Shown here: in pieces, positions 23,962 to 58,292 of the stretch
Layout of the letters: every line of letters begins with the position of its first letter
Position numbering within the stretch: position 1 is the stretch's first letter
Source: a virus
Reading direction: 5' to 3' (one strand)
Length of the DNA: 64,000 nt
Virus record (IMG/VR): IMGVR_UViG_3300025929_000015
Location: 35,377 to 99,376 of that record
Made by a program: the position numbers and the translations under genes
The notes under the pieces: model-generated
Told to the model about the DNA's origin: nothing
The model's database searches: none
Seen by the model: only the letters and a program-made list of their open reading frames with translations

Positions 23962-24021
23962 TCCTGGCAAGCAGAACAACGCCCGGACCCCAGGGGTCCG
24001 GGCGTGTTCCTCCTGGCAGGA
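23962..24021 (-). repeat. Family-A intergenic hairpin element, copy 1
   Basis: TCCTGCCAGG...stem-loop...CTGCTTGCCAGGA. Confidence 0.85.
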
Positions 24022-24023
24022 TG

Positions 24024-25130
24024 CTACGGCTGGGTGTAGCTGAACGCAGGCAGCGGCACGGCCACTGCCGGGTCCCCGGGCGGTGGCGCCCCGTTGGGGC
24101 ACCACAGGTTGACGATCACCTGCTGCTTGCCGGTGGCGGGGACGGCGACCGTGCCGCTGAACTGGTTCCCGCCGTACAGCTGGGTGTAGCTGTACTTCTG
24201 CCCCTGGACGGCGGTCACCTCGGCCAGCACGGTCCCGTCCGCGGCGGACAGCCGCCATCGCAGGGAGCCGGGCAGCCAGGTGAACTCGGCGGTCAGGCTG
24301 CCATGCCCCGCCGGGATGGCGAACTGGCTGCCCGGTACCAGCACGTGCCCGGGCGGGGTGCCCTGCACCGAGCTGAGCTGGTCGGCGTAGTAGCCGAACT
24401 GGACGAACGCCGGGGCGCCGGCGATAGTCCCGGCCGAGTAGAACTCGATGTCGATTTCCTTCTGCCCGCCGGGGCCGCCCTTGCTGGCTGCCCAGTAGGT
24501 GAACAGTCCCAGGCACAGCCCGGGCGGCAGTGCGGTCAGGTCGGCGCCGATGCTCCACCGGTAGGTGCCGTACCCCCAGGTCGAGGCGTTCGCCGCGATC
24601 CCCTGGTCACCCCGGGCGGAGTCCGCCTCCGCCCCGGCATACAAGCCGGGTGACAGCTGCGCGGCGTGCAGCGTCAGGACCTGACCCAGCGCGTCCACGG
24701 TCACGTTGGCCGCCTTAGGCTGGCCGGGCGCGGTGCCCCAGTCCTCCAGCTCCCACAGGTGATTGCCCCAGGACACCGCGTTCCCCGCCTGGGAGGCAGG
24801 CGGCTCGGCCCCGCCGTAGCCGGAGACGATGGCCTTGCCGGCTGACGGGGCGGCCCCGGCCAGCAGCGCGGTGCCGTTGGCGTTGGACTGCAGCGCGTAC
24901 GACCCGCCCTGGTCATCGGTCAGCGCCACCACCGCGGCCGGGGTCCCGGACGGGGTCACCGTGTAGCTGGTGGTCGCGGTGGCGATCTCCCCGGTCGCCG
25001 GGTCCTGCGCGGTCCCGGTCAGGTTGACAGTGAACACCGCCGCCCGGTCCGCGTAGTTCGCCGTCACCTTCACCGCCTCCCCCGGGGCGTAATTCGTCTT
25101 GTCGGTGGACAGGGACAGGCTCAGGGTCAT
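24024..25130 (-). CDS. GH16-like glycoside hydrolase with N-terminal Ig-like domain
   Basis: GYGTY...GLFTY...EIDIEF catalytic motif. Confidence 0.75.
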   Translation of the reverse strand: MTLSLSLSTDKTNYAPGEAVKVTANYADRAAVFTVNLTGTAQDPATGEIATATTSYTVTPSGTPAAVVALTDDQGGSYALQSNANGTALLAGAAPSAGKAIVSGYGGAEPPASQAGNAVSWGNHLWELEDWGTAPGQPKAANVTVDALGQVLTLHAAQLSPGLYAGAEADSARGDQGIAANASTWGYGTYRWSIGADLTALPPGLCLGLFTYWAASKGGPGGQKEIDIEFYSAGTIAGAPAFVQFGYYADQLSSVQGTPPGHVLVPGSQFAIPAGHGSLTAEFTWLPGSLRWRLSAADGTVLAEVTAVQGQKYSYTQLYGGNQFSGTVAVPATGKQQVIVNLWCPNGAPPPGDPAVAVPLPAFSYTQP

Positions 25131-25273
25131 GGTCGACGCCTCCTTCGCGGGGTCAGCCGGACCCGGGGCCGCAGCCGGGTGGCCGCAAGTACCGCGTAGA
25201 CCAGGGTCACCCCGCTGATCACGTACGTGCCCAGGAAATGGTACATGGGCATGTACCAGCCGTAATTCTGCAT
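25127..25273 (-). CDS. Single-TM small protein
   Basis: Hydrophobic core followed by an Arg-rich tail; ATGA-coupled to GH16. Confidence 0.6.
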   Translation of the reverse strand: MQNYGWYMPMYHFLGTYVISGVTLVYAVLAATRLRPRVRLTPRRRRRP

Positions 25274-25290
25274 GATATTTCCCCCTCGGG

Positions 25291-26409
25291 TCAGATGGAC
25301 GTACCGGCACCCCAGCTGGAGCTGCGCTTGCGCAGCATCCGGTACAGCGCGCGGATGTAAACGAACTGGCGGGCGACCGAGTAGAACAGGTCGGGGACGA
25401 TCAGCAGCGTCGCCACGATGGCGACGATCCCGGCCTTGCGCGCCTGCCAGGTCTGCTCGATGATGATGAACAGCAGGCACAGCGCGTACAGCTTCGCGTT
25501 CAGCGGGTTGATGCCCTGCCAGCCGAACAGCGCGAACGACCAGGACAGGTAGAACGCGGTCAGCGGCAGCGCCAGCATCCCCAGGTAGGTGGCGGACTGC
25601 CGGACGATCATCCCGCGCGTCTCGTGCCCCCACCCGTACCGGACCAGCTCGGCCAGCGTGCCGTGCTGCCAGCGCAGCCGCTGGCTCACCCAGTCCCGGA
25701 CGGTCTCCATCACGTCGGTCAGCACCCGGCAATTCCCCGGCGCCAGCACCGGGATCCGCAGCCGTTTCAGCGCCAAGGTCAGCTCGTAGTCCTCGACCAG
25801 GCTGTGCACGTCGTACACCTGGCCGTCCGGGCGGGTCGCGGCCACCGCCCACAGCACGCACACCCGCATCCCCCACCCGGTGCCGGACAGCACGTCGGCC
25901 CGCGGGCGGCGGTTCTGGTGCTGGGCGAACCGGGCGAACTCGGCCCGCTGCAGCGCGCCGAGCAGGCCGCCGCCGGGGCGGCCGTGGAACGTCGCGCCGA
26001 CGCTGCCGTAGCCTTTCTCCAGCCACCGGATCGTGTTGGCGATGAAGTCGGGGTCCGGCACGGAGTCCGCGTCGAACCCCATCACGATGTCGGTGTCATC
26101 CAGCCGGGGCAAGATGTGCGCCAGCCCGATGTTCAGGTTGCCGGCCTTGCGGTGCGGGTTGACCGCCGTCTGGGTGATGCTCACCCCGTACGGCGCGACC
26201 TCGGCTGCGATCCGGTTGGCCAGCTCGCGGTCGGCTGTGTTGTCGAGCAGGACATACAGCTCGTCCGGGGGCCTGGTCTGGCCGAGCACCGCCTCCACGG
26301 TCCGGCTGATCGTCCCGGTCTCGTTGTGGGTGGGGATCACGACGACCACCCGGTCGGCCGGGTCGGTCAGCAGCGGACCGAAATCCCTTCCTCGTCTTGA
26401 ATGGTTCAA
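25291..26409 (-). CDS. Processive GT2 glycosyltransferase (cellulose/PNAG synthase-like)
   Basis: IPTHNE, KAGNLN, DADS, VEDYELT, QRLRW motifs; C-terminal TM helices. Confidence 0.9.
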   Translation of the reverse strand: MNHSRRGRDFGPLLTDPADRVVVVIPTHNETGTISRTVEAVLGQTRPPDELYVLLDNTADRELANRIAAEVAPYGVSITQTAVNPHRKAGNLNIGLAHILPRLDDTDIVMGFDADSVPDPDFIANTIRWLEKGYGSVGATFHGRPGGGLLGALQRAEFARFAQHQNRRPRADVLSGTGWGMRVCVLWAVAATRPDGQVYDVHSLVEDYELTLALKRLRIPVLAPGNCRVLTDVMETVRDWVSQRLRWQHGTLAELVRYGWGHETRGMIVRQSATYLGMLALPLTAFYLSWSFALFGWQGINPLNAKLYALCLLFIIIEQTWQARKAGIVAIVATLLIVPDLFYSVARQFVYIRALYRMLRKRSSSWGAGTSI

Positions 26410-29650: not shown

Positions 29651-30218
29651 AGATGCGCTCGGCGATCGCGAGGAGCGTGGCTCTCTTGCCGGACCCGGGT
29701 TCGCCCAGGCCGGTCGCGATGTCGTTCAGGCCCGCGCCGTACCCGTAGTCGTAGGTGCAGGCCCAGTGCGTGCCGTCCGGTTCGGTCATGGTGGCCTCGT
29801 AATGCCCCGAAGCCGAATGGGCGTCGTCGGTGAACGTGAACAGGTACTCCCCGGACCCGAAATCGTGCCGGACCTCGAAGTGGTCATACTCGAACTCCAG
29901 CTCCGGCGGCGCGCCGGTGAGTTCCCGGGGTGCGTACTCCTGCGGAGCCGCGGCGCCGTCCGGCCAGAAATAGATCCGGCTGGAGCCCAGCCCCTGCTTG
30001 TAGCAGCCGACCCGGACCGGGCCGTCGCCCAGCACGCCGTGGTGGCTGTGCTGCCACCACGCCTCGGTGCCGCGCTCGCGGTTCTTGATCAGGTTCGCGA
30101 AGATCCGCACCCCGCTGGGCAGCCCGGCCTCGTCGGTGTCGAAGACCCCGACGTCTTCCTTATCCGGGCGGCGCTTCCCGTTGCAGTAGGTAAACGCGCC
30201 GTAGTCTGAGTACGCCAT
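29634..30218 (-). CDS. Hypothetical protein
   Basis: Strong codon bias. Confidence 0.7.
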   Translation of the reverse strand: MAYSDYGAFTYCNGKRRPDKEDVGVFDTDEAGLPSGVRIFANLIKNRERGTEAWWQHSHHGVLGDGPVRVGCYKQGLGSSRIYFWPDGAAAPQEYAPRELTGAPPELEFEYDHFEVRHDFGSGEYLFTFTDDAHSASGHYEATMTEPDGTHWACTYDYGYGAGLNDIATGLGEPGSGKRATLLAIAERIFRPTR

Positions 30219-30645
30219 TGCCTATGCTCGCTCCCCGAAGCAGAACGTGATCTCGCCCGAGGGCGAGACTTCGATCGCGTCGCCGGGCAGCAGCGGCACG
30301 CCGGCGACAGACAGGTGCCAGCCGTCCGCCTCAATCCGGACGTCATAGGGCGGCCGGCCGTGCTCGTGCGGGATGCGTGCCATCTGGATGACAGCCAGGT
30401 TCTTGCCGTCCCAGGGGGCGGTCCGGACCGGTTCCGTGCGTTCGGCGGTGCTCATGCGCCCGTCCATTCCCAGTGGCCGACGTCAAGGCCGTCCGAGCCG
30501 GTGACCCGGCCGCCGGTGTCGTCGTCTTCTTCGTCCAGGCCGGCGGTGAGAACGGCCCGCACGTTGTGCAGGGTCAGCGCGCCGGCGGTGGTGTCCCGGT
30601 CGATGACCAGCCGCAGCATGAATGTGCCTTTCATGTCCCTTCCTT

Positions 30646-31209
30646 TCATGTCCCTTCCTCCTCCTTATCTGCCGTGACCTTCTTGGCCCCGGCGTCCCGG
30701 GAAACAGCCTCCCGCATCAGGGAGGGCACCTCCCAGCCCAGCGCGTGAAGCCGCCGGATCGCTGCCAGCGCGGCCCCGGACCCCTGGCCGGAGAGGCGGG
30801 TCGAGGCCAGCGACATCGCCAGCGCCCACTCCCACGGTTCTCCTTTCGTGACCAGGCGGCCCTGGAGGTTCCACAGCACGACCGCGCAGGACGCCCCGGC
30901 GACCGCCCACCGCGTGACCTGCGGGAGGTTCTCGAAGAACCGGGTGTGGATATGCGGCTCGGGGCAGTGCTCGATACAGCCCCTCCGGTCCCATTCCTCG
31001 GGCCGCTTCGGGGCGTTCATGGGCTCGGCGCTGCTTCCGGTCAGGGCGCACAGCTTGTCCGTGACCTGACTCAGCGAGGTCTCCACGTAGACCGAGACCT
31101 GCACGCTGCCCCGGGCGCGCGTCTTGTTCTTATGCCGGACGACATGCCCGTGCATGTCCAGGACTCCCGCCGTCCAGCCCAGGTCTGCTTCGGTTATCAC
31201 CTGGCTCAT
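30646..31209 (-). CDS. LAGLIDADG-like protein with Cys/His insert
   Basis: ADLGWTAGVLDMHGHV resembles the LAGLIDADG helix; CIEHCPEPHIH. Confidence 0.6.
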   Translation of the reverse strand: MSQVITEADLGWTAGVLDMHGHVVRHKNKTRARGSVQVSVYVETSLSQVTDKLCALTGSSAEPMNAPKRPEEWDRRGCIEHCPEPHIHTRFFENLPQVTRWAVAGASCAVVLWNLQGRLVTKGEPWEWALAMSLASTRLSGQGSGAALAAIRRLHALGWEVPSLMREAVSRDAGAKKVTADKEEEGT

Positions 31210-31634
31210 GGCGAATGCGTCGTGGCCGGCGGCGTCACCCCGGGGATGCTCGGCGTGCCCGCAACGGCGGGCTGGCCCTGGGCCAGCGCGAACGTCACGA
31301 CACCGGCGGCCCACGCGTGCAGCGCCGGGCCGTGCGCGTCGGCCAGGGTGAACGTCCGCACCGCGAAGTTCACGACCCCGGCGCCGTCGGGGAACGTGGC
31401 CTGCACCGCGCTCATCATCGACGTGATCGGGTGCGACGGCCGGAAGTCCTTCTGGAAGCTGGCGAGCAGCTCGCCTTCCAGCCGCTGCTTGTCCGCCCGG
31501 TAGGCGGGGTCCGCGGTCAGCGCGCTGACCGCGGACCGGGCCGGGTGCGCGGTCGCGCCTGGCGCGGAGGCGCACCCGGCCGCCAGCAGTACCGTGGCTG
31601 CTGCCATGGCGGCCAGCATGTCCTGCTTGTTCAT
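31206..31634 (-). CDS. Lipoprotein
   Basis: Lipobox LLAAGC. Confidence 0.7.
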   Translation of the reverse strand: MNKQDMLAAMAAATVLLAAGCASAPGATAHPARSAVSALTADPAYRADKQRLEGELLASFQKDFRPSHPITSMMSAVQATFPDGAGVVNFAVRTFTLADAHGPALHAWAAGVVTFALAQGQPAVAGTPSIPGVTPPATTHSP

Positions 31635-31801
31635 TTCACGGTTCCTTTCCCTTTTGCGGAACTAGCTGTTCGCGCTTTGTCGCAGGATTCGGTGTGGTGA
31701 CCCGTCAGCTCGCAGGCCATGCAGCACCACCACTTTTTACGGAACCTCCCCTTGACGACCGTGTATGTGCCTTTCCGGCCGCAGCCCGCACATTTCCTCA
31801 T
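31631..31801 (-). CDS. WWCC zinc-finger microprotein
   Basis: RKCAGCGRKG...KWWCCMACELTGHHTESCD. Confidence 0.7.
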   Translation of the reverse strand: MRKCAGCGRKGTYTVVKGRFRKKWWCCMACELTGHHTESCDKARTASSAKGKGTVK

Positions 31802-31929
31802 TGTCCGTTCCTCCGGTCGCAGGCGTAGGTGTGGCGGCCCGACAGCTCGCAGGTCAGGCAGCACCACCATTTCCCGGCCTGCTTGTACCAGCCTTTCCGG
31901 CCGCAGCTGTTGCACTTCCTGAAGGTCAT
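31798..31929 (-). CDS. WWCC zinc-finger microprotein (tandem paralog)
   Basis: RKCNSCGRKG...KWWCCLTCELSGRHTYACD. Confidence 0.7.
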   Translation of the reverse strand: MTFRKCNSCGRKGWYKQAGKWWCCLTCELSGRHTYACDRRNGQ

Positions 31930-31968
31930 CTGCCTCCTCCCTTAGCCGGGCAATTCGTTTTACCTGCC

Positions 31969-32026
31969 TCCTGGCAAGCAGGCCCCGCCCGGGGCGATGA
32001 GCCCGGGCGGGACCTTCCTGGCAGGA
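31969..32026 (-). repeat. Family-A element, copy 2
   Basis: Same conserved ends. Confidence 0.85.
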
Positions 32027-32027
32027 A

Positions 32028-32267
32028 TCAGCTGCGGCGCCGCCCGCGTATCTCGGCGACGGCGTCCTGTGCACCGGTCTGGTAGATCAGCTCCACGGCG
32101 AAGCCGAGCAGGGAGACGGGCTCTTCGGCGGCGGCCTGCTGCGAGACGTAATCGCGCAGCCGTTCGCTGACCACCTCGAGCAGGACCGGGACGGCTTCGG
32201 AGTCGAACGGCTCGTCCGAGGGGGGCAGCGCGATGACGTCCTCGCGGGTGACCTCTTTGGTCGTCAT
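32028..32267 (-). CDS. Hypothetical protein
   Basis: RBS AAGGAG. Confidence 0.65.
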   Translation of the reverse strand: MTTKEVTREDVIALPPSDEPFDSEAVPVLLEVVSERLRDYVSQQAAAEEPVSLLGFAVELIYQTGAQDAVAEIRGRRRS

Positions 32268-32278
32268 GACGTTTCTCC

Positions 32279-33850
32279 TTACTGCCCGTTGCTCGCGGGC
32301 TTCTTGGCGAAGGTGATGTCGTATCCGTCGTCGCCGGACACCATCTTCCCCTGGGTGGCGCCGAGGGCGATGGAGACCAGCTCGGTGATCCGGGCTTCCA
32401 TCGTGGTGACATCGTGGTCGCCGTGCTGGGCGTTGTCCATCAGGTCCAGGTGGGCCTTCATGCCGAACGCGGCGTCGACCAGGTCTGCCGTGCTGATCGC
32501 GGCGGGCTGCCCGGCGTTCCTGGTGATCGAGTACCGGACGGCCCGCATGGCGGCCTCGGCGGCGAACGCGGGCAGGAAGCCCTCGTACGCCGCGGCGACC
32601 CGCACCCAGTCGATGTCCTCAGCGAGGAGGTCCCCGACGAGGACCTTGACCAGCCGCTCGTAGCCGTCCGCGTCCAGGTCCCCGACCGGGACCACCGCGT
32701 CGAGACGGCCCGGCCGGATGACCGACTTATCGAGCCTGTCTGCGAAGTTCGACGTGAACCCCGCCATCACCTCGGCTCCCTTGGCCTGGATGTTATCCAG
32801 GGTGTCCAGCACCTTGGCGATGGCCTTGCGTCCCTCGACCGCGGAGATGCCCGCGGACGCGATCACGTCCAGGTCCTCGACCCACACCACGGCCGGTGCG
32901 TACATCCGCGCCGTGATCATCGCGCCGAACGGGTCGTCGCCCGCCCGGACGAGAATGAAGGTCCACCCGTTTTCCTGCGCGATCTGCGCGGTCCGCAGCC
33001 CGGCCAGGGTCTTGCCGGTGCCGTTGGGGCCTTCGAGCAGCACGGCGCGCTTCAGCGGGATCCCCGCGTCACGCAGCGCCTCGGTGTACCGCATCGGCGC
33101 CCACAGGTTCACGTCCAGCTGCTCGAACACCTCCGGGCGGTAGATGATCTTCGCCGGGTCGATCCCCGACGTGTCCACGAACTGCGGCTCCTCGGGGTGC
33201 GCGGTGATCGCCCGCCCCTTGTAGATGGACCCGTTGACCAGCTCGTCGTCGATGACGGCGAAGAATCCCTCGATCCGCGCCTGGTGCTTCTTGGGTGCGG
33301 TCACGGAGATCTGGAAGACGGTCCCGTACTCGTCCGTCTGGGTGGCGCCGAGGACGAACGTCGCGTCCAGCAGCGAGAAGTTGACCTCCCCCCACGGAAC
33401 CTGGAGGGTCTGCCCGCCCGGGCCGGCCGGAATCGACCGGTACTGCGGCGGCTGCTTGCCGAAGAACATCGAGAACGTGGCCTTGCCGATCCCCGTGGTG
33501 CCGAAGACCCGCTTCATCGCCCGGTTGAACGCCGCCGCGCCATCCAGCGGCTTGAAGTTGAAGCGCCGGACGAACTGGAACTCGGCGTTCTGCTGGCCGT
33601 CCCAGTCGGTGAGGAACGCGACGACCTCGCCGATGTTCCCTTCCATCTGCGCGGGCAGGATGAACTGGGTTCCCGTGAAGATCAGGCTGTCCTCGGTGAC
33701 GTTCTGGCTGCCGAGCGCGTCCAGCTTCGCGAGCAGCTCGGCGGTGACCCGCTCCTGCTCGGTCGGCGGGCGGTTCGCCTTCGCGAGGGCACGCTCAGCT
33801 GCGCGGTCCATCGACGACGTGCCGGTGGCGCGCTTCCTGGTTGTAGCCAT
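32279..33850 (-). CDS. AAA+ ATPase (classical clade)
   Basis: LLEGPNGTGKT, VWVEDLD, TSN...LDKSVIRPGRLD. Confidence 0.9.
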   Translation of the reverse strand: MATTRKRATGTSSMDRAAERALAKANRPPTEQERVTAELLAKLDALGSQNVTEDSLIFTGTQFILPAQMEGNIGEVVAFLTDWDGQQNAEFQFVRRFNFKPLDGAAAFNRAMKRVFGTTGIGKATFSMFFGKQPPQYRSIPAGPGGQTLQVPWGEVNFSLLDATFVLGATQTDEYGTVFQISVTAPKKHQARIEGFFAVIDDELVNGSIYKGRAITAHPEEPQFVDTSGIDPAKIIYRPEVFEQLDVNLWAPMRYTEALRDAGIPLKRAVLLEGPNGTGKTLAGLRTAQIAQENGWTFILVRAGDDPFGAMITARMYAPAVVWVEDLDVIASAGISAVEGRKAIAKVLDTLDNIQAKGAEVMAGFTSNFADRLDKSVIRPGRLDAVVPVGDLDADGYERLVKVLVGDLLAEDIDWVRVAAAYEGFLPAFAAEAAMRAVRYSITRNAGQPAAISTADLVDAAFGMKAHLDLMDNAQHGDHDVTTMEARITELVSIALGATQGKMVSGDDGYDITFAKKPASNGQ

Positions 33851-33879
33851 TGGTTTCCTTTCCTTGCGTGGTGCCTGCC

Positions 33880-33937
33880 TCCTGGCAAGCAGAAAACCGC
33901 CCGGCCCTAAAGGCCGGGCGGCATCTGCCGGTCAGGA
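33880..33937 (-). repeat. Family-A element, copy 3
   Basis: Same conserved ends. Confidence 0.8.
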
Positions 33938-33953
33938 TCCCGGCGTCACCCTC

Positions 33954-34736: not shown

Positions 34737-34829
34737 GATTTTCCCTTCCGCCTGAGTAGCCTTTACCCAGACTGCACCCCGCACCGGGATTCCCCCCCGG
34801 TGCGGGATACACGCCAGGTACGCGGCGTC

Positions 34830-35036
34830 TTACAGGTTGAATGCCTTGAAGAGCTGGCTGAGCAGGCTGCCGGCCCAGCGGAGCACGTCAGCGAACCCGT
34901 CGGCGACCGCCGCCATGGACGTCAGCTTGGCGTGCTGGTTGACCGCACCGACGGCGGCCAGCACCAGCAGGACGCCGAGGATCATCAAGGTGATGGAGAT
35001 GACCTTGACGAACCCGGCCATCATGGCGGAGAACAC
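34830..35036 (-). CDS. Small membrane protein
   Basis: TM helix plus amphipathic helix; RBS. Confidence 0.6.
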   Translation of the reverse strand: MFSAMMAGFVKVISITLMILGVLLVLAAVGAVNQHAKLTSMAAVADGFADVLRWAGSLLSQLFKAFNL

Positions 35037-47524: not shown

Positions 47525-47602
47525 GGTTTCCTCCTCTCGTTGGCGGTTCCCACCCGCACGCAGGACCCGCGCCCTGCGTGCGAGTGCCAGCCGCCACCGG
47601 CA

Positions 47603-48469: not shown

Positions 48470-48976
48470 TGCTTGTCATCTCCTCCTCCGTTCGTGCGGC
48501 CGGACCGGAACCGCAGGCTGAAGCTGTAGTAGACCGCGGCCATCGCCAGGTACACGGCTAGCGCGATCCACCACCCCCACCAGACGTCCCGGACGATGGC
48601 GGTGACCAGGATCGCCGCGCCCACCGCGTACACCGCCCAGGCCGATGCGGTCCGCATCCGGACCTCGCTCCGCGGCACCCAGACGGTCCTGCGGGTGACC
48701 TTTCACGGTTCCCCCCCGTAGTGCGATTGGTCGCGCTGCCAAGACGTGTCCTCCAGTGCCGCGGCGTGCGACGCCGCCCGGTGGTGTTCGTGGCTGGGCA
48801 CGCTGATCACGTGCCGGGCACGGGTCACAGTCACCCACCACACCCCGTTCGTGATCGGCTCGCCGCAGCCCCGGCAGGCAGTCGCCGGCCCGCCGCGGAA
48901 CTGCGGCGGATCCGACTGGTAGCACGCCGGGCAGTTCAGCGCCTCGTCATGGACGTGTTTCATGAATTCCCTTCCA

Positions 48977-49060
48977 TCAGACGCAGGTGCAGGTACGGAA
49001 CGGGCACTGCGGCTTGTGGCACTTGCCGCATTTGCCGCATTTCTTATGGGGGCATTTCAC
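48977..49060 (-). CDS. 27-aa metallothionein-like peptide
   Basis: RBS GAGGAGG; MKCPHKKCGKCGKCHKPQCPFRTCTCV. Confidence 0.55.
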   Translation of the reverse strand: MKCPHKKCGKCGKCHKPQCPFRTCTCV

Positions 49061-49204
49061 CGTTCCTCCTCGATTTTCTTCAGGACCCACTGCCGGGCGT
49101 ACCGCAGCGCGATCAGCCCGGCGATGCAGCCGGCTATGACCAGGAATCTCACCGGCCTCCTTTTCAGTGCACGGCTAGCGCGATGCCGCGGCGTGTATGT
49201 GATC

Positions 49205-49507
49205 TCAGGCATGAGCGCTCCTTCTCATGTAGCCGCTCGCGGTCCGGCGGAAGCCGTGCCGCTCATACCAGGCGGTGAGCTGGTCGTAGTCAAGCCCGTC
49301 CGACGGGCTGACCTCCAGCTGGAGGGTAATGCCCTCCGCGTCGGCGTCGGCTAGGATCCGGCGCAGCAGCCTGCCGCCGATACCCTGACCGCGGCCAGCT
49401 CTCACCGGTACGTTGATGCGGGTAATCGTCCAGTTTCCCGTCAGCTCACCCGGCGCCACGAGGTCCGCGATGGCATTGGCCGCGGCGTCGACGTAGCACG
49501 TATTCAC
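49205..49507 (-). CDS. GNAT acetyltransferase
   Basis: RGQGIGGRLL...WYERHGF. Confidence 0.85.
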   Translation of the reverse strand: MNTCYVDAAANAIADLVAPGELTGNWTITRINVPVRAGRGQGIGGRLLRRILADADAEGITLQLEVSPSDGLDYDQLTAWYERHGFRRTASGYMRRSAHA

Positions 49508-49742
49508 GAGTCCTTCTTCCGGGTGCCGCGGTCGTACGTGGCGACCGGGACCGCGTAGTCCTGCTCATGGACCATGTCATTGACCTGCCAGATGGTCAGC
49601 TCGCACGCCCAGGCCCGGGACAGCACGATGGCCGCGTCGGTCGCCAGGGCCAGCGAGACCGCGTCATCGTCCGGGGTGCCCACGCACGGCCCGGCCACGA
49701 CCACCCGGTGCTCGCTGCCCCGGCGCCGCACCTCGTACTCGA

Positions 49743-50531
49743 TCACGCGGCCGTCCCTTCCTCCCTCTTGGCTTTCGCCGCCTCGATGCTGGCCTTGAGC
49801 ACCTCGCCGATGTCGGCGACCGCAGCGGCCTGCGCCGGGGTCGGCTCGGGTGGCGGACTCCCGGCCAGCTTGGCCTGGATCAGCTTCTCGACCGCCTCCC
49901 CGTACTTCGAGGTGTACGCGCCGGGGTCCCACGGCCCGGACAGCGTGTCGATCAGCTGCGCGGCCAGCAGCCGCTCTTTGTCGGTCACTGCCACCTCCTC
50001 GCGGAGGAACTTGAACGCAGGCTCGCGGATGTCCGCCGGCCAGGCCAGCTGCTGCAGTATCAGCATCTTGCGGTGCGCCCGGATCACCACCAGGCAATCC
50101 TTGGACCGCATCGCGAACCGGGCGATCCCGACCTTGCCGCTGGCCTTGATCTGCTGGCGCAGCAGCGTGTACGCCTTCAGGCCCACCGGGTCCGGCTCGA
50201 TGTAGTACGCCTTGCCGAGCCCGGACAGGTCGATCTCCCCGGCGTGCACGAACAGCTCGATGGCGATCACCTTGGCCCCGGGCAGCGGCAGGGACTCCAG
50301 CTCCTCGTCAGTCAGCACGAACATCTGGTCTCCGACTTCCTTGCCCTTGCCGATGTCGGCATACGGGACCTCTTCGCCGTCGATGCTGCAGTAGCGCCGG
50401 AGCTGGATCCGCCCGCCGTCCTTCTTGTGCACCTGGCGGAAGGCGTACTCGTCATCGCCGGTGATCCGGTAGAGCTTCACGGGCGTCACCAGCAGCCCGA
50501 CAGCCAATGCACCGTTCCACGTGCTTCTCAT
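49743..50531 (-). CDS. ku: Ku DNA end-binding protein
   Basis: MRSTWNGAL..GL...PVKLY...QVHKKDGGRI...GEEVPYADI.KG...YY..P. Confidence 0.93.
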   Translation of the reverse strand: MRSTWNGALAVGLLVTPVKLYRITGDDEYAFRQVHKKDGGRIQLRRYCSIDGEEVPYADIGKGKEVGDQMFVLTDEELESLPLPGAKVIAIELFVHAGEIDLSGLGKAYYIEPDPVGLKAYTLLRQQIKASGKVGIARFAMRSKDCLVVIRAHRKMLILQQLAWPADIREPAFKFLREEVAVTDKERLLAAQLIDTLSGPWDPGAYTSKYGEAVEKLIQAKLAGSPPPEPTPAQAAAVADIGEVLKASIEAAKAKREEGTAA

Positions 50532-50823
50532 CCCTTGTCGTCCTTTCGTGTATCTTACCCACGCCTTCTGGCGCACATGGCAGGCCCGCGGTGGTCACTC
50601 ACCGCGGGCCTGCCATCAACGTCAGCTCAGCTGCCATCTGCCAGGATGCCGGGCCGGGCCACTCCCGCTGGGCACCGCCCGCCAGCTCGCAGCCGGTGTG
50701 CCCGAACACGACCGGGTCGTACGCGCAGCCGCACGGGCGGTTCCCGTTCCGCAGCCGGTCGGCTTCAGCGCGCGCCCGGCTGCGGACCGGGCCCGGGATT
50801 CTTAGTCTTCGCACCTCTGTTCC

Positions 50824-51729
50824 TCATAGCTCTCCGCGACCCTGCTCCGGGGTCATCGGCACCCGGGCCAGCGCCGGCGGGGCACCCGCGTTGAGCGCCT
50901 GCCGGAGCAGTGCCGCCATCGTGTAGCCCGGGTCATCGGCGAACGCCCGGTCCAGCGCCACGTTGGCCAGCGCCCCGTTGCCGGCCTGCCAGGCGCAGAA
51001 CGCCAGCAGCGACGCCGGCGCCGCCACGTACCCCGGGGGCGCCAGCCGGGTCAGGTCCGTCCACAGCCGCAGGTGCGCCCTGGAGTACTCGGGGTCCATC
51101 CGGGCCCACGCGTCATCCCGCACCCGGATGTCCCGCAGCGCGGCCAGGACCAGCGCGGCGTTGCCGTCGGTGAGCGACGCGCCGCCGCGGTACACGGCGA
51201 TCGCGGAGACCGGAGCCAGCGCCACGCCCGGCGCCGGCACGGCCCGGCGGACCGCCTCCTGCATCGCCTGCGCCCGCTCCCCGCAGACCGGGGCGACCTG
51301 CGCGGTCAGGGCCGCCCGGTCGGCCAGCACCGGGATCCCGATGTCCGCCGGCTGGAACGGCGTCCCCTCCGCCGGGCAGCACCGCTCGTCGGTGCAGATG
51401 CAGGACCAGTAGCGGTTCCCTTCGATCCGCAAGATCTCGGCCATGTTCACGTCCGCCAGCGCCGCGATGGCCGGCTGCGCCTCCTGCCCGGTGCCGTAGA
51501 TGATCGCGACGGCCTCCGCGGCCTCCGCGTTGACCATCGCCATCGCCGCGTGCACGAGCTGCTCACGCGCCTCCTCGCCCGTACCGGGCAGGTCGTACCG
51601 CAGCGTGAGCGCCACCTTCCCCTCGTCGCTGACTCCCACGAACACCAGGCTGTGCTGCGGGGTGAAGCCGATCAGGTTCGGCACGTGAGCCGCCAGCGCC
51701 GCCGGCGAATCGATGACCACCTTTTTCAT
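50824..51729 (-). CDS. DUF4192 protein
   Basis: VPNLIGFTPQHSLV...RVRD...AWQAGNGALANVALDRA...PGY. Confidence 0.88.
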   Translation of the reverse strand: MKKVVIDSPAALAAHVPNLIGFTPQHSLVFVGVSDEGKVALTLRYDLPGTGEEAREQLVHAAMAMVNAEAAEAVAIIYGTGQEAQPAIAALADVNMAEILRIEGNRYWSCICTDERCCPAEGTPFQPADIGIPVLADRAALTAQVAPVCGERAQAMQEAVRRAVPAPGVALAPVSAIAVYRGGASLTDGNAALVLAALRDIRVRDDAWARMDPEYSRAHLRLWTDLTRLAPPGYVAAPASLLAFCAWQAGNGALANVALDRAFADDPGYTMAALLRQALNAGAPPALARVPMTPEQGRGEL

Positions 51730-51763
51730 GGCTCTTCCTTTCTCCCGGGAACGACATCTTGCC

Positions 51764-51822
51764 TCCTGGCAAGAGGAAACGCCCGCACCGGAGCACGGTG
51801 CGGGCGTAACCTCACGGCAGGA
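51764..51822 (-). repeat. Family-A element, copy 4
   Basis: Same conserved ends. Confidence 0.8.
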
Positions 51823-51839
51823 TTCAGTCCTTTCGCGGA

Positions 51840-53231
51840 TCAGTCCAGTGTCGCGGCCAGCATGGCGGTGCGCGGGCCGAGCCGGAACATCGCGGCCCTT
51901 TTCTCCTCGTTCGCGGTGATGCCCGCCTGCCCGTCCTGTTCGTCGAACTCAAGACCGGCGGCCGGGCCGACCTGGTAGTACTCGCCGCACTGCCGGGCGG
52001 CGGACCGGCCGCCGGCCTTGAAATTGGGGAGGGGATTCCCGGACTGGACGATCAGGGGATTCCCGGACTGGACGATCAGGTCGGGCGGCGGATCCCACCC
52101 GGTGCACAGCACTGCATGGTCGTAGTACCGGCCGTTGACCAGCACCCCACCGCCGGGCAGCGCGACCGGGGTCCCCTTCTCCGGGATCACGGTGAGGTCA
52201 TGGAACTGGATGCCCGCGGGCAGGTGCGACGCCAGCCGCAGGTACCGGCTCTGCATCTCCCCCAGCCACCGGCCGCGGGTGTCGGGCAGCTTAGGTGCGT
52301 ACAGGTCCACCCGCGGGAACCCGGCGCCGCCGCGCCTCATGCGCGGGCCGATGCCCAGCAGCGCCTCCGCGGCGCACAGCGCCGATTTCCCGTCGCCGAG
52401 GACCGCGACCCGCTGCATCTGGCCGAACGCGAAATCCTGGTCCGCCTGGCGCATCGCCTGCGCCCAGGTGAGGATCGTCTTCCCGTCAGCCCCGGCCGCG
52501 CCGCGTTCGGTGCCGAACCCGCGCGCGTCGATCACCCGCCCGGCCAGCAGGGACCGGCCGTCTCCCAGGGTGACCCTCATCGCCGGCTGACCGGTTCCGC
52601 TGAACCGCTGGCCGGTTACCCGGACCGAGGCTGCGGACGCCCCGGTGATCACCCGGGCGTGCAGCATCAGCGCCGCCCGGATCACGAACCGCGGCACCGT
52701 GTTGTCCGGCAGCTCCCGCCCGCTGATCTGCGCGCACTGCACCGGCGCCCCGGGCAGCCAGTTCGGCGCGTTCGGCTCGCCGTCCGCCCACGGGACCCCG
52801 GGCATCCCCCCGGTGTCCTCGCTGTTGAGGTAGAACGACGGGTTCCGGGTCACCGCGAAGACCCCGCCGGGTATCTTGGACGTTTCCAGCGCCCACGGCT
52901 TGGGCTTGCCCCTCAGATGCCGGATCGCGCAGTACGTGGCGCAGTGGTAGCCCGACCCGATCACGAACTCGTCGACCTGGCGCCCGTCCAGCGCCGCGGA
53001 GAGGTTGAGGTTTGACAGGTTCGCGAACAGCACCCCGAGCCGGGTATCGAACCGGGTGTACGCGACGGGGTTCATCGCGATCCCGGCGAGCTGCGCGGCC
53101 AGGACCGCGTCGGCGTCCCCGCCGGACGCGCGGGCCTGCTTAGCTAGCAGGTCCGCCTCGTATCCTTCCGGGGATCTGATGATCTCCGCGATTTCCGCGG
53201 CCATCGCCGGTGGTAGTACGTCGGCTGTCAT
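51840..53231 (-). CDS. FAD/NAD(P)-dependent oxidoreductase (flavin monooxygenase-like)
   Basis: VIGSG...E...GG; IDARGFG; VAVLGDGKSA; VLCTGW. Confidence 0.78.
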   Translation of the reverse strand: MTADVLPPAMAAEIAEIIRSPEGYEADLLAKQARASGGDADAVLAAQLAGIAMNPVAYTRFDTRLGVLFANLSNLNLSAALDGRQVDEFVIGSGYHCATYCAIRHLRGKPKPWALETSKIPGGVFAVTRNPSFYLNSEDTGGMPGVPWADGEPNAPNWLPGAPVQCAQISGRELPDNTVPRFVIRAALMLHARVITGASAASVRVTGQRFSGTGQPAMRVTLGDGRSLLAGRVIDARGFGTERGAAGADGKTILTWAQAMRQADQDFAFGQMQRVAVLGDGKSALCAAEALLGIGPRMRRGGAGFPRVDLYAPKLPDTRGRWLGEMQSRYLRLASHLPAGIQFHDLTVIPEKGTPVALPGGGVLVNGRYYDHAVLCTGWDPPPDLIVQSGNPLIVQSGNPLPNFKAGGRSAARQCGEYYQVGPAAGLEFDEQDGQAGITANEEKRAAMFRLGPRTAMLAATLD

Positions 53232-53305
53232 GACAGTGTCCTTTCTCTGGGTTCACGTGAAACCACGGCCGCCCCGCCCCCGCAGGGGCCGGGGCGGCCT
53301 GCCGG

Positions 53306-53440
53306 TCAGATGTCGCTGACCTGGTGCTTACTCACGACCGGCGCGGAGCTGAACCCCAGCGGGGCCGGCCTCCGGGCCAGGAACGGGTCGAGCGTCTCGA
53401 CGTCGGGACTGGGCTTGGCGCCGTTCGGGTTGTCGTACAA
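53306..53440 (-). CDS. 44-aa peptide
   Basis: RBS GGAAGGA with TTG start. Confidence 0.5.
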   Translation of the reverse strand: MYDNPNGAKPSPDVETLDPFLARRPAPLGFSSAPVVSKHQVSDI

Positions 53441-53470
53441 CGGGTTTCCTTCCCTCGGGTTGCGCCTGCC

Positions 53471-53530
53471 TCCTGGCAAGCAGAGCGCGCCCGGGCCCCC
53501 GCGGGACCGGGCGCGCTCCTCCTGGCAGGA
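53471..53530 (-). repeat. Family-A element, copy 5
   Basis: Same conserved ends. Confidence 0.85.
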
Positions 53531-54237
53531 TCTCTCAGGCACCGCCGTCACAGTGCCTGACCTCAGGACAGTTACGCCTGCGCATGGACGCACCCCCTCG
53601 TTTCACTCACCCGTCCGCGTCGGACGACGCCGGCCGGTCCGGGTAGGGTGCCTGCCCGCACAGCGGGGCGATCTGCCCGCCCGCGCCGAGCTGCTGCAGG
53701 CTGGCCGCCACCGCCGCGCAGCTGAACGGCCGCGGCGCGGCCCGCACCGGGTGATACCCCGCGGCCAGGGCGCAGTACAGTACCACGCCCAGCGCGGGTA
53801 TGATCACCCACATCCAGATCCGGAACAGCCGGACCCGGCTGACGCGGGCCGCGGCGGCCCGGTCGTTCCGCGCCCATTGCGCGGCGATCTCCCGCGGATC
53901 GGTCATGGGCTATCACCTTCATGCTCCTCGGCCCACAGCCGGGCCGCGAACGCGGTGACCGCGTCGTAGACCGCTTCAGGGTCGGCGTCGTGCGACTGGA
54001 CCAGGTCCAGGCCGAGGCTCCGCAGCAGCGCCCCGGTCAGCGCGACCGCGCTCGGCGCCGCCCGCGCGAACGTGCGCAGCACCGCCTCGTACCGTTCCGG
54101 GTCCATCCCGCCGGGCGGGTCGCTGAACTCCAGGTGCCGCAACCCGCCCCGGTCCCGGTCCTGGGCCTGGACCGTGGCCGCCAGGGCCTGCTCGACGTGC
54201 TCTCCGGGATCACCGGACAGCCACTTGCCAGCCATCG

Positions 54238-54645
54238 TCAGCCTCCTGCCAATCTCCGAATCTCCGCGTCCATGTCGTCCTTCGCGGACGCCTCCTGGGC
54301 CGCGTGGTATTCCGCGACCGCGGCCATGATGTCCTCCAGGTTCTCCGGCATGTCCTTCGCGATATACTGGCGGCGGTAGTGCTCCTTCTCGATCACGTGC
54401 TCCCGCAGTTCCTGCGGTGTCTTAGCCCGGTAGATGCTGTACGCGTCGATCGCGTCGGCCTTCAGTTCCTGGGCCAGCTTCGCCCACGCCACCATGTGGC
54501 CGGTCGGGCGCACCACGTTGTCGTCCCATCGCACGATCGAGCGGCGCCGGTCCTCGGGACCCAGCGCGCTGATCCGCCGGGTGATCTCCTCCTCGCCCAG
54601 GCACGCTGCGACGTAGACCCGTTCCTGCTCATATGTTGCTGCCAT
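54238..54645 (-). CDS. Hypothetical protein
   Basis: RBS and codon bias. Confidence 0.65.
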   Translation of the reverse strand: MAATYEQERVYVAACLGEEEITRRISALGPEDRRRSIVRWDDNVVRPTGHMVAWAKLAQELKADAIDAYSIYRAKTPQELREHVIEKEHYRRQYIAKDMPENLEDIMAAVAEYHAAQEASAKDDMDAEIRRLAGG

Positions 54646-54735
54646 TGCCGTTTCCCTTTCCGCCTGGCCACAGTCTGGCTTGGCCGTGACTCAGCGGCCC
54701 GGCCGGGGCCTGCCTTCCCCGGCCGGGCCGCTCAA

Positions 54736-55182
54736 TCACGCGATGAGGGATTCGGGCTGTTCGCCGATGATCTGCAGGATCACCTCGTCGACCTCGGTAC
54801 GGCCGGATGCCATCGCGGGGGCGATGAGCGGTGGCTGCAAGATGTTGAGCTGCGGCGGGTCCTGCTTCACGACACCTTCGGCGGCGTCGAACAGGGCCGT
54901 CCGCACCGTGAGGTTGTGCCCCCACCACGGGCTCCTCGTGACCGCGTCCGTCTTGTTCATCATGTCGATGAGGCCGCGCAGCCACGGCAGGAACTCGGCG
55001 GTGATCGGGAACCGGTGCTTACGGCCGGTGGTGCAGTCCAGTACCACCAGGTCGTCGGCATTGTTGCAGATATCGGCCTGGGTGATCGCGCTGGCCCACA
55101 CGGCGTGGTGGCCGCTGAACAGCGGGTACACGCCGACCTGGATCCCGCCGCCCACGGCGATTTTGCAGGGTCTGGCACTCAT
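54736..55182 (-). CDS. Hypothetical protein
   Basis: RBS AAGGAG. Confidence 0.65.
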   Translation of the reverse strand: MSARPCKIAVGGGIQVGVYPLFSGHHAVWASAITQADICNNADDLVVLDCTTGRKHRFPITAEFLPWLRGLIDMMNKTDAVTRSPWWGHNLTVRTALFDAAEGVVKQDPPQLNILQPPLIAPAMASGRTEVDEVILQIIGEQPESLIA

Positions 55183-55206
55183 GGCGTTCTCCTTTCCGTG
55201 CCTGCC

Positions 55207-55267
55207 TCGCTGGCAAGCAGAACGCGCCCGGACCTGTTGCAGTCCGGGCGCGTTCTCCCTGGCAGGA
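55207..55267 (-). repeat. Family-A element, copy 6
   Basis: Same conserved ends. Confidence 0.85.
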
Positions 55268-55268
55268 T

Positions 55269-55796
55269 TCAGCTCGCCTTCCGCCACGTGATCAGGTTCG
55301 CGTCGCTGTGCACCCGGCTGCACCGCAGGCAGTACAAGTCCCGCGTCGTGCTGCGCGCCCGGTGGAAGACATGCCCGGCCGGGCATGTCCCGGTCCACGG
55401 CAGCGGGGCGTGAACCTCGCCGTTCTCACCCCACAGCCGGGATGGCGCGATGCCCAGCCGGATGCAGTGATGCTGCCACAGCGGGCCATGCCCGTCATCC
55501 GGGGCGCGGGCGTGCGCGATCTCATGCAAGATGACCAGCCGCTGCTGCTGTTCTGTCCACAGCGACATCAGCGGCCCGGACAGCGTGATCGTACCGGGCT
55601 GGCCATTCCACCGCTTCGTGCTCCGGTTGGTGGGGAACGTGACCGAACCGGCTTCCTTGACCGCCCGGCCGATCTGCAGCGTCCAGTCCGCGAGACCGTG
55701 CTCGGCCATCAGCGCGACCGCCAGGTCATGCGCCCGCTCGATCGCGAACGGGTCACCTTTCGCGTTCAGCGCCCATTTCAGCCACGCGTACTCCAC
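55269..55796 (-). CDS. SprT-like zinc metalloprotease
   Basis: ILHEIAH...HGPLW...CPAGH...CLRC. Confidence 0.85.
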   Translation of the reverse strand: MEYAWLKWALNAKGDPFAIERAHDLAVALMAEHGLADWTLQIGRAVKEAGSVTFPTNRSTKRWNGQPGTITLSGPLMSLWTEQQQRLVILHEIAHARAPDDGHGPLWQHHCIRLGIAPSRLWGENGEVHAPLPWTGTCPAGHVFHRARSTTRDLYCLRCSRVHSDANLITWRKAS

Positions 55797-56679
55797 GATC
55801 TTTCACCTCCTCCTCGTATTTCATAAAAAGCACGAGTCACCCCTCCTCGGGATTGCCATCGGGAACGGAATTAGCCGCGTCGATGCAGCGGGCCAGCTGG
55901 TCCGCCTCGTTGACAGAGCACTCAAACCCGCGGTTCTTCACCAGGTTCGTGACCTGCACCCGGTCCAGCTCACGGTCCAGCGCGATACTCCACCGCCCGT
56001 TACTGACCTTGACCATCACTCCTCCAGGTCATCAATCAGGTGGATCATGTAGTGCGCCTGGTAGCCGACGTGCTCAGCGCCGTGGCAGTTCCACGTCCGG
56101 TGACCGCACCGCGGGCACTTCAGGAACAGCAGGCGCTCCACCGGAGCGGGAATCCGCTCCAGCAGCAACCGCTGCCACTCCCCGGGCCCCATCGCGGCAA
56201 TGCAATCCGGGCACGTCACCCGCGTCAGGACCGGGGTCGCCGCGTAGCATGTGCCGTCGAACCCGCACAACGGCCGGTACGTCCCCGGCGTCAGGTAATG
56301 GCGGCTGACGGTTACGTGATGCGCCTGGTCCGGGGATTCCCGGCATGTCATGTCACTGTCGCCGGTCATCAGGACACCGGTGACGAAATCCTCGCAGAGC
56401 GGCCGCCCGCAGTAGGCACAGGTCATGCCGCCACCTCCTCCCACGGTTTCGGGCAGATCACCGCGACCATCTTGTGGTGCCCGGCCGCCGCGCACGCGCA
56501 CTTCGACTCCCCGTACGGGTTCTCATCGGTCCGCGGCACGAAACCGCGCCACGCCCCGCGGCAGCGGCCATGCACGTCATAGCAGACGCCCGCCGGACGG
56601 ACCGGCCCGGGCCCGCAGAAACCGCAGGTCCACGCCTCGTCGTGCCGCGGCGCCACCGCGGGCACCGCGCGCCGCGCGG

Positions 56680-56904
56680 TCATGGCCGCACCGGCTCACC
56701 GGTGACATGCCAGTGCCACGCGTCACGCGGACCGCTGCGCTCGCGGCGCACCGCGCCGGTACCGAGCCCGTAGCGCAGCACCAGCTGCGCCCGGTACCGG
56801 TTGGCGTTGATCGCCACGGCAACCTCGCTGATCGTCGCACCCGGATGATGCGCTAGCCATGCCATCGCCAGCGCGTACCGGCCTGGTTCCATAACCTCAG
56901 TCAT
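56680..56904 (-). CDS. Winged-helix protein
   Basis: HPGATISEVAVAI...G.VRR. Confidence 0.6.
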   Translation of the reverse strand: MTEVMEPGRYALAMAWLAHHPGATISEVAVAINANRYRAQLVLRYGLGTGAVRRERSGPRDAWHWHVTGEPVRP

Positions 56905-57828
56905 CTCAATCCCTCCTTATCTGTCTCTGGGCATGCGAAAGCACCCCGGGCCCTGGTGGACCCGGGGTGCTTTCGTACAGCCAGGACTAGGGCCGTACCC
57001 CGGAGCCGGGCGCAGCGTGGGGAAGTGCGGGAGCCCCGCGAAAGGCTCAACCGCTTCTGCGCCCGCATTCCCTCGCTCCGGGGTACGGCCGGTCTTCACG
57101 GCTTCCTGATGATATGGATATCCGTGACCAGCGGGACGCTGATGAGGACGTTCGCTGACCTCGGGTCCCGGTTGATGACCTGCGCGACGGCCTCACTCCC
57201 GGCGCTGGCCGGGTCTTGAGCGACCACGGCGGTTGTCACGGTGATGGTGACTTCGTACTCAGTCATCGCAGCCACGGATTCTCGTCGTCGTCGTCTTCGT
57301 ACTCGTTCGCCAGCAGCTCCTCCAGGACCTTCTCGAACGCGATCTCCCGCAGCGCCAGCCGGTCCTGCGGGCCCAGCCGGTCCGTGTAACTGGTAGCGCC
57401 GCCGAGCGGTAGCTCCACGTTCACGACCTGGACCGCGCGGGCCACCTCGTGGCGCAGCTCGGCGACCGTACGCCGCGCGGTCACCGGTCCCCCCGGGCCC
57501 AGCGCTCCACGGAGTACAGCCACGCCCGCCGGGACCGCTTCACCCGGGAGATCCACGCCTTGAGATCCTCCAGCTCCTTGCAGAACTGCTCGTACGTCAG
57601 TTCGGTGTCCTTCCATTCCTTGCTGCCGTACTGCGGCTTACCGGCCATGGCAGGTCTCCTCTCCAGCCGCGGATGCACGCACCCGCGAAACTTCCCAGCA
57701 CGGACGGCGGGACCACAGGTCCCACCAGATCACCGACAGCGAGCCGAACTGCACGCCCCAGCGGTGGATCTTGAGCCTGCGGCCCCACCCGTTCAGGTGC
57801 GCCACGTAGCGGTACGGGGGCAGCATGG

Positions 57829-58161
57829 TCAGCACGCGGCGATCTGCGCGTAGGTGACCGCGTTATCGATGCACGCCACGTACAAGTCCGAGGCGCTGGG
57901 CTGCGCCGCCAGCAGCACGGCCACCACGGCCACCGCGGCCGCGATGAACACGTACCCCAGCGCGCACGCCCACGTCGCCACCGCGGACGGCTCCAGGCCG
58001 CGCCGCCTGGCCTGCCCCCGGGACACGTGCCCCAGGATCACCCCGAGCGGGGGGAACACGAACACGCTGATGATCCCGCCGACCGCAGCCGCGTCGGCGT
58101 CCGCCCGGGTCACGGGCGGCGAACCGGAGCCGGTAACCCCGGCCATGTCGTTGACTGTCAT
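57829..58161 (-). CDS. DUF4190-like membrane protein
   Basis: PLGVILGHVS...AR. Confidence 0.7.
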   Translation of the reverse strand: MTVNDMAGVTGSGSPPVTRADADAAAVGGIISVFVFPPLGVILGHVSRGQARRRGLEPSAVATWACALGYVFIAAAVAVVAVLLAAQPSASDLYVACIDNAVTYAQIAAC

Positions 58162-58189
58162 GATGATTCCCATCTGTCTCTGCCTGTCC

Positions 58190-58292
58190 TCCTGGCAAGC
58201 AGAACGCACCCGGCCGCCGTATGGCCCATGGGATCCCCGGGGACGGAATCCGCTATGGGTATGGGCGGCCGGGTGCGCTCTTCCCGGCAGGA
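58190..58292 (-). repeat. Family-A element, copy 7 (expanded loop)
   Basis: Same ends; about 43 extra nt in the distal part. Confidence 0.8.

Follow-up and report, generated by a model that had tools for sequence, protein, structure and literature searches.

The last 64 kb of a 99,376-bp viral contig in IMG/VR (IMGVR_UViG_3300025929_000015; about 83% complete and about 70% GC), hereafter the window, carry eight copies (e1 to e8) of a conserved hairpin element that lies between the non-structural genes of a long minus-strand block. We read this element as a transcript-punctuating hairpin, that is, a leaky terminator, a 3′ stabiliser or an RNase III-type site, whose flanks also serve as joints for gene exchange, and we put the probability of this reading at about one half. 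Termination, cleavage and stabilisation by the hairpin are what we infer; the fold of the element, its covariation, strand bias and placement, the lack of promoters and recombinases, the breakpoints at its edges and the reordering of the gene units between its copies are described below as observed.

The hairpin family and its fold

An earlier note on this DNA, made by a model from the sequence alone, had listed seven copies (e1 to e7), and a covariance model was built from them. The model regained all seven with scores of 61–84 bits and added an eighth copy (e8) that the note had missed. All eight copies are intergenic, lie on the minus strand and are co-oriented with the genes. The coordinates and strand given for the seven copies, their lengths (58–61 nt, and 103 nt for one), the quoted consensus with its pair of conserved mismatches, the direct repeat TGCCAGG and the ability of CCTGCC to pair with GGCAGG were all found as described. 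When up to two mismatches were allowed, the 15-mer CTGCTTGCCAGGAGG gave seven matches, all on the minus strand, compared with 0.24 expected, and none of 100 shuffles reached seven. Six of these matches were listed copies, e6 requiring more than two mismatches, and the seventh (60038–60052) was rejected, being a ribosome-binding site that shares TTGCCAGGAGG and has no hairpin. No copy was found in the first 35 kb of the contig.

The covariance model detected 41 distinct copies after de-duplication in ten viral and soil contigs, with 1–8 copies per contig. G002 (119 kb, 97% complete), of which G001 is a near-duplicate, contained 5 copies, and G003, a 104-kb IMG/VR phage, contained 6, while seven further soil-metagenome contigs also carried the family. 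Throughout the family the copies were co-oriented with the genes and clustered within a few kb near one contig end, among small genes. For finding relatives, a 22-base gapped pattern served better than the exact 15-mer, which occurred in 46 IMG/VR contigs; one of these had two (overlapping) matches, only three related contigs held the full gapped motif, and the remaining contigs were rejected as members, as they look like chance matches. Searches of Rfam matched only a tRNA at the gathering score and yielded no family for the element at the E-value threshold either, the sub-threshold matches being chance microRNA hairpins. A blastn search with one element gave no match among cultured phages and only insignificant GC-rich matches among plasmids, and a search of 185,579 bacterial and archaeal GTDB species genomes returned only five single matches in unrelated taxa, which is about the chance level. 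The hairpin family is therefore undescribed, as the earlier note had supposed, but the kind of thing that it represents is already known.

Every copy formed a single long hairpin of 25–30 bp, and for the seven listed copies the predicted folding free energy (dG) was between −45 and −71 kcal/mol, with z-scores of −4 to −7 relative to shuffled sequences. The lower stem was near-invariant and consisted, from its base, of UCCUG/CAGGA, a C.C mismatch, CAGG/CUUG including a conserved G.U pair, and an R.G mismatch, which was closed to C-G in a 'GCGCA' sub-family. The upper stem was GC-rich and 11–18 bp long, with variable sequence and loop and with its pairing kept, and the 3′ arm was U-rich (..UUCUGCUUG). 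Family members ranged in length from 58 to 105 nt, with C.C and R.G left unpaired as conserved positions, and they tolerated big apical inserts on a fixed base, as in e7 (103 nt) and the copy at G003:11208 (97 nt). In the aligned copies the ends of the element read TCCTGCCAGG and CTTGCCAGGA, the 5′ end being TCCTG, and the TGCCAGG direct repeat was traced to the near-palindromic TCCTGCCAGGA. The conserved region extended upstream into CTGA(A/T)TCCTG, the TGA of which was often the stop codon of the preceding gene; 19 of the 29 scorable family copies began no more than 5 nt past a stop codon. The gene that follows has a ribosome-binding site of its own, and its start codon usually lay 13–38 nt beyond the hairpin.

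In a model-guided alignment of 31 copies, 94.8% of the cells paired, compared with 83.2% in column shuffles, and 10 pairs carried a change in each partner where 5.6 were expected (reached by 0 of 500 shuffles), although these numbers overstate independence because the alignment was fitted to the model and many copies are kin by descent. When the partner was slid by 1–3 columns, pairing fell to 37–58%, and RNAalifold independently gave the same fold. The positional orthologues e3/g4 and e2/g3, the second member of each pair being in G002, flank the AAA-ATPase gene, which is about 77% identical between the two genomes, and their upper stems differ in sequence with the pairing kept by compensatory changes. 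The covariation of the stems, which had been claimed from the window copies, was thus confirmed both by alignment statistics and by orthologue pairs. The sense fold was more stable than that of the complement in 39 of 41 copies, and the variable upper stem contained 47 G.U pairs versus 2 A.C mismatches. This G.U excess and the stabler sense fold favour a sense-strand fold, so that the element is probably read as RNA, and less probably as the non-template DNA strand. Of the two options that the earlier note had left standing, a recombination signal or an RNA element, the latter is supported as to its level of action (by compensatory changes, sense-strand bias and co-orientation just past stop codons), while processing and termination are its putative roles.

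The individual copies, all on the minus strand, differ in their distance from the neighbouring genes. e1 (23962–24021; 82 bits, dG −49.1, z −6.2) lies 2 nt past the TAG of a 368-aa gene, and the GTG start of the next gene follows about 23 nt beyond the hairpin; an alternative 8-bp hairpin is also possible in its 3′ half. e2 (31969–32026; 84 bits) begins 1 nt past the TGA of a 79-aa gene, the next after the AAA-ATPase gene, and has its positional counterpart in G002 at L080:13993-14078. e3 (33880–33937), a chimeric junction, is located just upstream of the AAA-ATPase gene (32279–33850). e4 (51764–51822; z −7.0) lies between a 463-aa gene (51840–53231) and the DUF4192 gene (50824–51729), and e5 (53471–53530; 83.6 bits) lies upstream of the same 463-aa gene. 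e6 (55207–55267; 84.2 bits), 1 nt past the TGA of a 175-aa gene, has one extra base inserted in its 3′ arm (CCAGCGAGG). The new copy e8 (56914–56993; dG −50.5, 24.3 bits, E-value 0.0011) is diverged and stands directly past a TAG, and its architecture matches that of the other copies. e7 (58190–58292; 103 nt, dG −71.5, z −6.7, 70.9 bits), directly past a TAA, keeps the conserved base and has an extra apical insert in the upper stem. A start within a few nt of a stop codon, which had been described as usual, held for five of the eight copies; e3 and e4 were 16–17 nt from the called stop and e5 was further away.

Proposed transcript punctuation and gene exchange

The sequence 3′ of the upper stem partly resembles the tail of an intrinsic terminator, in which a U-tract of 7–9 nt comes immediately past the stem. 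The U fraction in the 11 nt following the upper stem was 0.42, compared with a background of 0.16, and in the 'GCGCA' sub-family UUUU came directly past the stem, even where pairing was poor. Three of the eight window copies passed a simple terminator scan, and e1, e3 and e4 were the only terminator-like sites with a 12-bp stem in the 40-kb block. Together with NusG, the mycobacterial (actinobacterial) RNA polymerase makes use of U-tracts that are imperfect (Czyz et al. 2014, PMC3993855). The same phage also has canonical strong terminators, at 12866–12899 and 3418–3447 (both on the plus strand), in which stems of 13–14 bp are followed by 6–7 T and which do not carry the conserved flanks of the element. 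Because such canonical terminators with 6–7 U are present elsewhere in this phage, the U-tails of the elements look deliberately weak, and their weakness is not a general property of the phage.

Promoters were not found at the elements. Measured from the hexamer TTGCCA, 0 of 40 copies had a −10 box of the form TANNNT at a distance that would suit sigma-70 or PafBC, on which ground this hexamer was rejected as a −35 box and as a PafBC/RecA-NDp-like motif. A sigma-54-like GG-N10-GC motif on the opposite strand was rejected for its wrong orientation and because Actinobacteria are not known to have sigma-54. Promoter-like sites were not enriched in the block and were enriched elsewhere in the window. 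Since there are no promoters past the elements, the downstream genes must be read through them, and efficient termination would silence about 40 kb of genes. A strong terminator is thus disfavoured by the poor tails, by the stronger canonical terminators elsewhere and by the promoter-less downstream genes. A selenocysteine insertion sequence (SECIS)-like or stop-codon readthrough element was also dropped, as neither the loops nor the distances are constant and a GC content of 70% by itself leads one to expect open frames through the element.

On our reading, the upper stem and the U-rich arm would form a weak, leaky intrinsic terminator or a pause site for the host RNA polymerase, and where termination occurs the 3′ end of the transcript would be expected within UUCUGCUU. 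Once the RNA is released or processed, the 5′ motif would pair with the U-rich arm to complete a nearly blunt hairpin of 25–30 bp, which could block 3′ exonucleases and would be long enough to be a substrate for host RNase III. In this way a polycistronic RNA could be cut or graded into segments that differ in abundance and stability, like the early region of T7. The frozen lower stem, the conserved mismatches and the tolerance of apical inserts fit a partner that recognises a long double-stranded RNA at its base. The intercistronic helices of 25–30 bp between co-directional genes have the length of RNase III sites, about two helical turns or more. A Pfam search of three of these phage genomes did not find a phage RNase III, and a host enzyme would be needed. 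Sigma-70 region 2 was likewise absent from them, and a T7-like RNA polymerase gave no match, although the positive control for the latter was silent and the result is uninformative.

Comparison of the related contigs revealed that the gene families between elements are reordered. In G002, L119, L121 and L123 the order was AAA-ATPase and 79-aa genes, element, 167-aa gene, element, FAD-like and 160-aa genes, element, and in G003 it was element, AAA gene, element, FAD-like gene, element. The window has 18 kb between its AAA unit and its FAD-like unit, yet elements still bracket each of them. In six to seven classes of junction, long homology blocks began or ended no more than about 6 nt from the edge of an element, and the gene upstream of the AAA-ATPase element was a different one in each of four genomes. 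e3 is a chimera that resembles L127 from the upstream gene as far as the 5′ motif, and L119, L123 and G002 in the upper stem and downstream gene, the joint being located inside the 5′ motif. The link between synteny breakpoints and elements that the earlier note had put forward for testing was thus found in the reordered units, the block edges and this chimera.

At the DNA level, the conserved flanks of 13–20 nt would form islands of identity between otherwise unrelated genes, and related phages have exchanged, gained and lost modules there, probably by ordinary recombination, as at the promoter-early stem-loops (PeSLs) of T4-type phages. Pfam searches of three genomes (G000, G002 and G003) did not detect a tyrosine recombinase (PF00589; G002 is the 97% complete genome, and the control was positive in 14 of 14 genomes) or a Y1/RAYT transposase (PF01797). 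As these genomes lack any such recombinase, the economical account is that ordinary recombination acts at the conserved flanks.

Two further arrangements were observed in the related contigs. L119 contains at 8047–8640 (plus strand) an extra element–open reading frame–element unit of about 186 aa that is absent from G002, L121 and L126; its reading frame has a GC content at third codon positions of 0.62, compared with about 0.85 in its neighbours, and from its sequence the unit looks like a recently acquired cassette. In L127, at 5818–7168 (minus strand), the element and the first 120 nt of the downstream gene are duplicated (E-F49 ... E-F49, E being the element), which suggests tandem duplication of element–gene units.

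Alternative explanations

Several points weigh against the punctuating hairpin as we read it. The U-tract is poor in several copies (e2 and e5), and five of the eight window copies fail the simple terminator scan. The invariant lower stem and its mismatches are not needed by a plain terminator or stability hairpin, and the conservation of the lower stem points to a sequence-specific partner, be it a protein, an RNase or an alternative pairing. The C.C mismatch has turned into U.U in parallel in two copies (g4 of G002 and L122:2387), a change not accounted for by simple helix stability. Phage breakpoints favour gene boundaries anyway, and with an element every one to two genes, chance adjacency of breakpoints and elements is partly expected. 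The limited independence of the aligned copies, given above with the covariation figures, tells in the same direction.

Two further readings at the RNA level address the frozen lower stem. One is a translation-coupled switch, which we regard as unlikely. A ribosome ending at the stop codon would unzip the 5′ motif, and the freed 3′ arm CUGCUUGCC would refold with the tail GGCARGCAG into a hairpin whose loop shows AGGA(GG), a Shine-Dalgarno look-alike, which would couple initiation or 30S capture at the next gene to translation of the previous one. The start of the 5′ motif no more than 5 nt past the stop codon in most copies agrees with this, and so does an alternative hairpin of 7–9 bp predicted in nearly all copies (dG −8 to −17 kcal/mol), whose helix pairs in 76% of cells compared with 25–49% in slid controls. 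Blocking the 5′ motif would cost only about 7 kcal/mol, with the upper stem and the alternative hairpin remaining, and isolated compensatory variants were seen in e4 (CCUCUUGCC/GGCAAGAUG) and at G003:11988 (CUCACC/GGUGAG). In two copies (L127:3910 and G003:11988) the following gene does have the AGGAGG of the 3′ arm as its actual ribosome-binding site, and a segment with two partners cannot drift, which would explain the frozen sequence. However, covariation in the alternative helix did not exceed that in shuffles (2 double-change pairs versus 2.4 expected), the next gene in most copies has its own unsequestered ribosome-binding site 10–25 nt further on, and, when the tail was included, 31 of 40 copies still had the long hairpin as their minimum-free-energy fold. 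The other is a dedicated phage RNA module, in which a partner would read the lower stem, stop-coupled refolding of the 3′ arm would determine, for each gene, if the RNA undergoes cutting or stabilisation or transcription continues, and the element would also be the joint of a promoter-less cassette system in a clade of soil actinophages; a phage protein, a host RNase or a ribosome contact that reads the C.C and R.G mismatches is the candidate partner. We consider such a module distinctly unlikely.

Three readings place the function of the element in DNA. The 3′ palindrome (CTGCTTGCC-AGGA-GGCAAGCAG) could serve a phage repressor or a ParB-like protein as an operator or 'stoperator' through which transcription is blocked or organised, with the hairpin as an adjacent terminator. 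Actinophages do scatter oriented intergenic repressor sites, as in the L5 stoperators and the conserved inverted repeats of phiC31; here, the sequence of the palindromic 3′ half is conserved and shows no covariation, and the phage encodes a ParB/helix-turn-helix protein (47603–48469). Yet the palindrome never occurs apart from the hairpin (6 of 10 matches were inside elements, and the other 4 compare with 3.8 expected), an operator leaves the 5′ motif and the covarying stem unexplained, and the strand bias of the G.U pairs argues for RNA rather than a DNA operator, which makes this reading improbable. Still less probable is a selfish mobile hairpin, like a repetitive extragenic palindrome (REP) or one of the miniature inverted-repeat transposable elements (MITEs), spreading among intergenic sites with little phage function. 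Much-alike elements, upper stem included, do occur in unrelated gene contexts with element-only matches of 75–86% identity, and placement past stop codons is REP-like, conserved ends and a variable centre also fitting a selfish repeat. Against such spread, no Y1/RAYT transposase or other recombinase was found in the three genomes, the copies keep strictly to one orientation, hold their positions between phages whose flanking gene is about 77% identical and, as orthologues, evolve by compensatory change, which indicates sites that stay fixed under purifying selection over the long term and not a recent spread, and the 185,579 species genomes lack the family except for the five chance-level matches. 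The least probable, and to us a far-fetched one, is a site-specific cassette system, integron-like or of another kind, for which single-stranded DNA folded into the hairpin would be the recombination site and circles or deletions would join inside TCCTGCCAGG or CTTGCCAGG. The likeness to attC sites is one of architecture only (58–105 nt, conserved ends and mismatches, a variable centre, a position 3′ of an open reading frame, co-orientation), alongside the reshuffling of inter-element units with breakpoints at element edges. By contrast, no tyrosine recombinase, serine recombinase or Y1 transposase was detected in G000, G002 and G003, with positive controls, the element sequences lack the inverse core (RYYYAAC) and core (GTTRRRY) of attC sites, and the folding strand is the mRNA-sense strand. 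Contigs from four rhizosphere DNA runs, compared with positions 46000–64000, contained no excision joints at elements, a result that near-identical strains and short-sided joints render uninformative. The dedicated cassette-recombination system envisaged earlier is thus unsupported, given three genomes without recombinases and elements without attC core sites.

Related systems and the surrounding gene block

The family combines known kinds of element, a terminator or processing hairpin and a PeSL-like joint. PeSLs of T4-type phages consist of a stem-loop and a strong sigma-70 early promoter at module boundaries (Arbiol et al. 2010, PMC2839356; Comeau et al. 2014, PMC4122927). Like PeSLs, the element is a short conserved intergenic stem-loop motif present in many copies, in one orientation and among non-essential genes, and, when related phages are compared, it is located where insertions, deletions and replacements have their boundaries, with no need for a dedicated recombinase. 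Unlike PeSLs, it has no promoter past any copy, its conserved part is the base of the hairpin, it shows compensatory change on the RNA-sense strand, and it belongs to a clade of high-GC actinophages with unrelated sequence.

The RNase III sites of T7 (R0.3, R0.5, R1, R1.1 and R1.3, among others) are similar hairpins that separate early cistrons and stabilise the upstream messages. Both they and the elements are mutually similar intergenic hairpins of about 60 nt on a polycistronic transcript, concentrated near its promoter-proximal end, with a helix of RNase III length and conserved non-Watson-Crick positions in the lower stem. The T7 sites have an asymmetric internal loop, whereas the elements have two 1×1 mismatches in a continuous helix; the elements also differ in carrying a terminator-like U-rich 3′ arm and in abutting stop codons, and cleavage here would be by analogy with T7. 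With actinobacterial intrinsic terminators the element shares a GC-rich stem of 11–18 bp followed by a U-enriched stretch just past stop codons, but it differs from them in its invariant, sequence-specific lower stem and tail and in a U-tract weaker than those of the phage's own canonical terminators. REPs and attC sites are likewise imperfect palindromes with conserved ends and mismatches and a variable centre, placed past open reading frames in one orientation; unlike them, the family has no RAYT, IntI, 5′ GTAG or attC core motifs and is confined to one phage clade.

The expression of long, promoter-poor accessory-gene blocks in actinophages is little understood, and a structured RNA family that is tied to stop codons and common to a clade of uncultured soil phages gives a directly testable handle on it, with attenuation, RNase III processing, message stabilisation and translational coupling as candidate roles. 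The PeSL principle is also not tied to promoters or to T4-like phages, since a conserved regulatory motif can double as an exchange joint. For related phages from metagenomes, the covariance model shows where the units begin and end, and the hairpins are candidates for use as insulators or stabilisers when expression constructs are of high GC content.

The structural genes are on the plus strand, upstream in the contig. The leftward block runs from about 61.5 kb to about 21 kb of the window and contains about 100 small, tightly packed minus-strand genes, among which the recognisable ones encode Ku-like, ParB-like, DUF4192, family-2 glycosyltransferase and AAA-ATPase proteins. A megablast search of positions 30000–36000 against phages gave no match and hence no close cultured relative, and the nearest protein relatives of the AAA-ATPase, at 36–38% identity, were from prophages of Mycobacteroides and phages of Gordonia. 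Where the leftward block starts, positions 61500–62400 (minus strand) form an apparently non-coding region of about 0.9 kb with lower GC content, in which no consensus promoter was found.

The genes for the ParB-like, Ku-like and DUF4192 proteins are clustered on the minus strand at 47603–48469, 49743–50531 and 50824–51729, respectively. This cluster, together with the integrase-free related genomes (three examined), may indicate an extrachromosomal, plasmid-like or linear lifestyle. The 463-aa protein (51840–53231, minus strand) is bracketed by elements in every related contig and has no Pfam or PHROG match. In the ESM Atlas, both features and structure placed it among FAD/NAD(P)-binding, pyridine-nucleotide-disulfide oxidoreductase-like proteins, some of them from giant viruses; as a lead only, these model-based comparisons suggest an FAD/NAD(P)-binding oxidoreductase-like protein rather than a nuclease or recombinase. 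The window also contains a single tRNA-Met (CAT) gene at 14488–14563 (plus strand).

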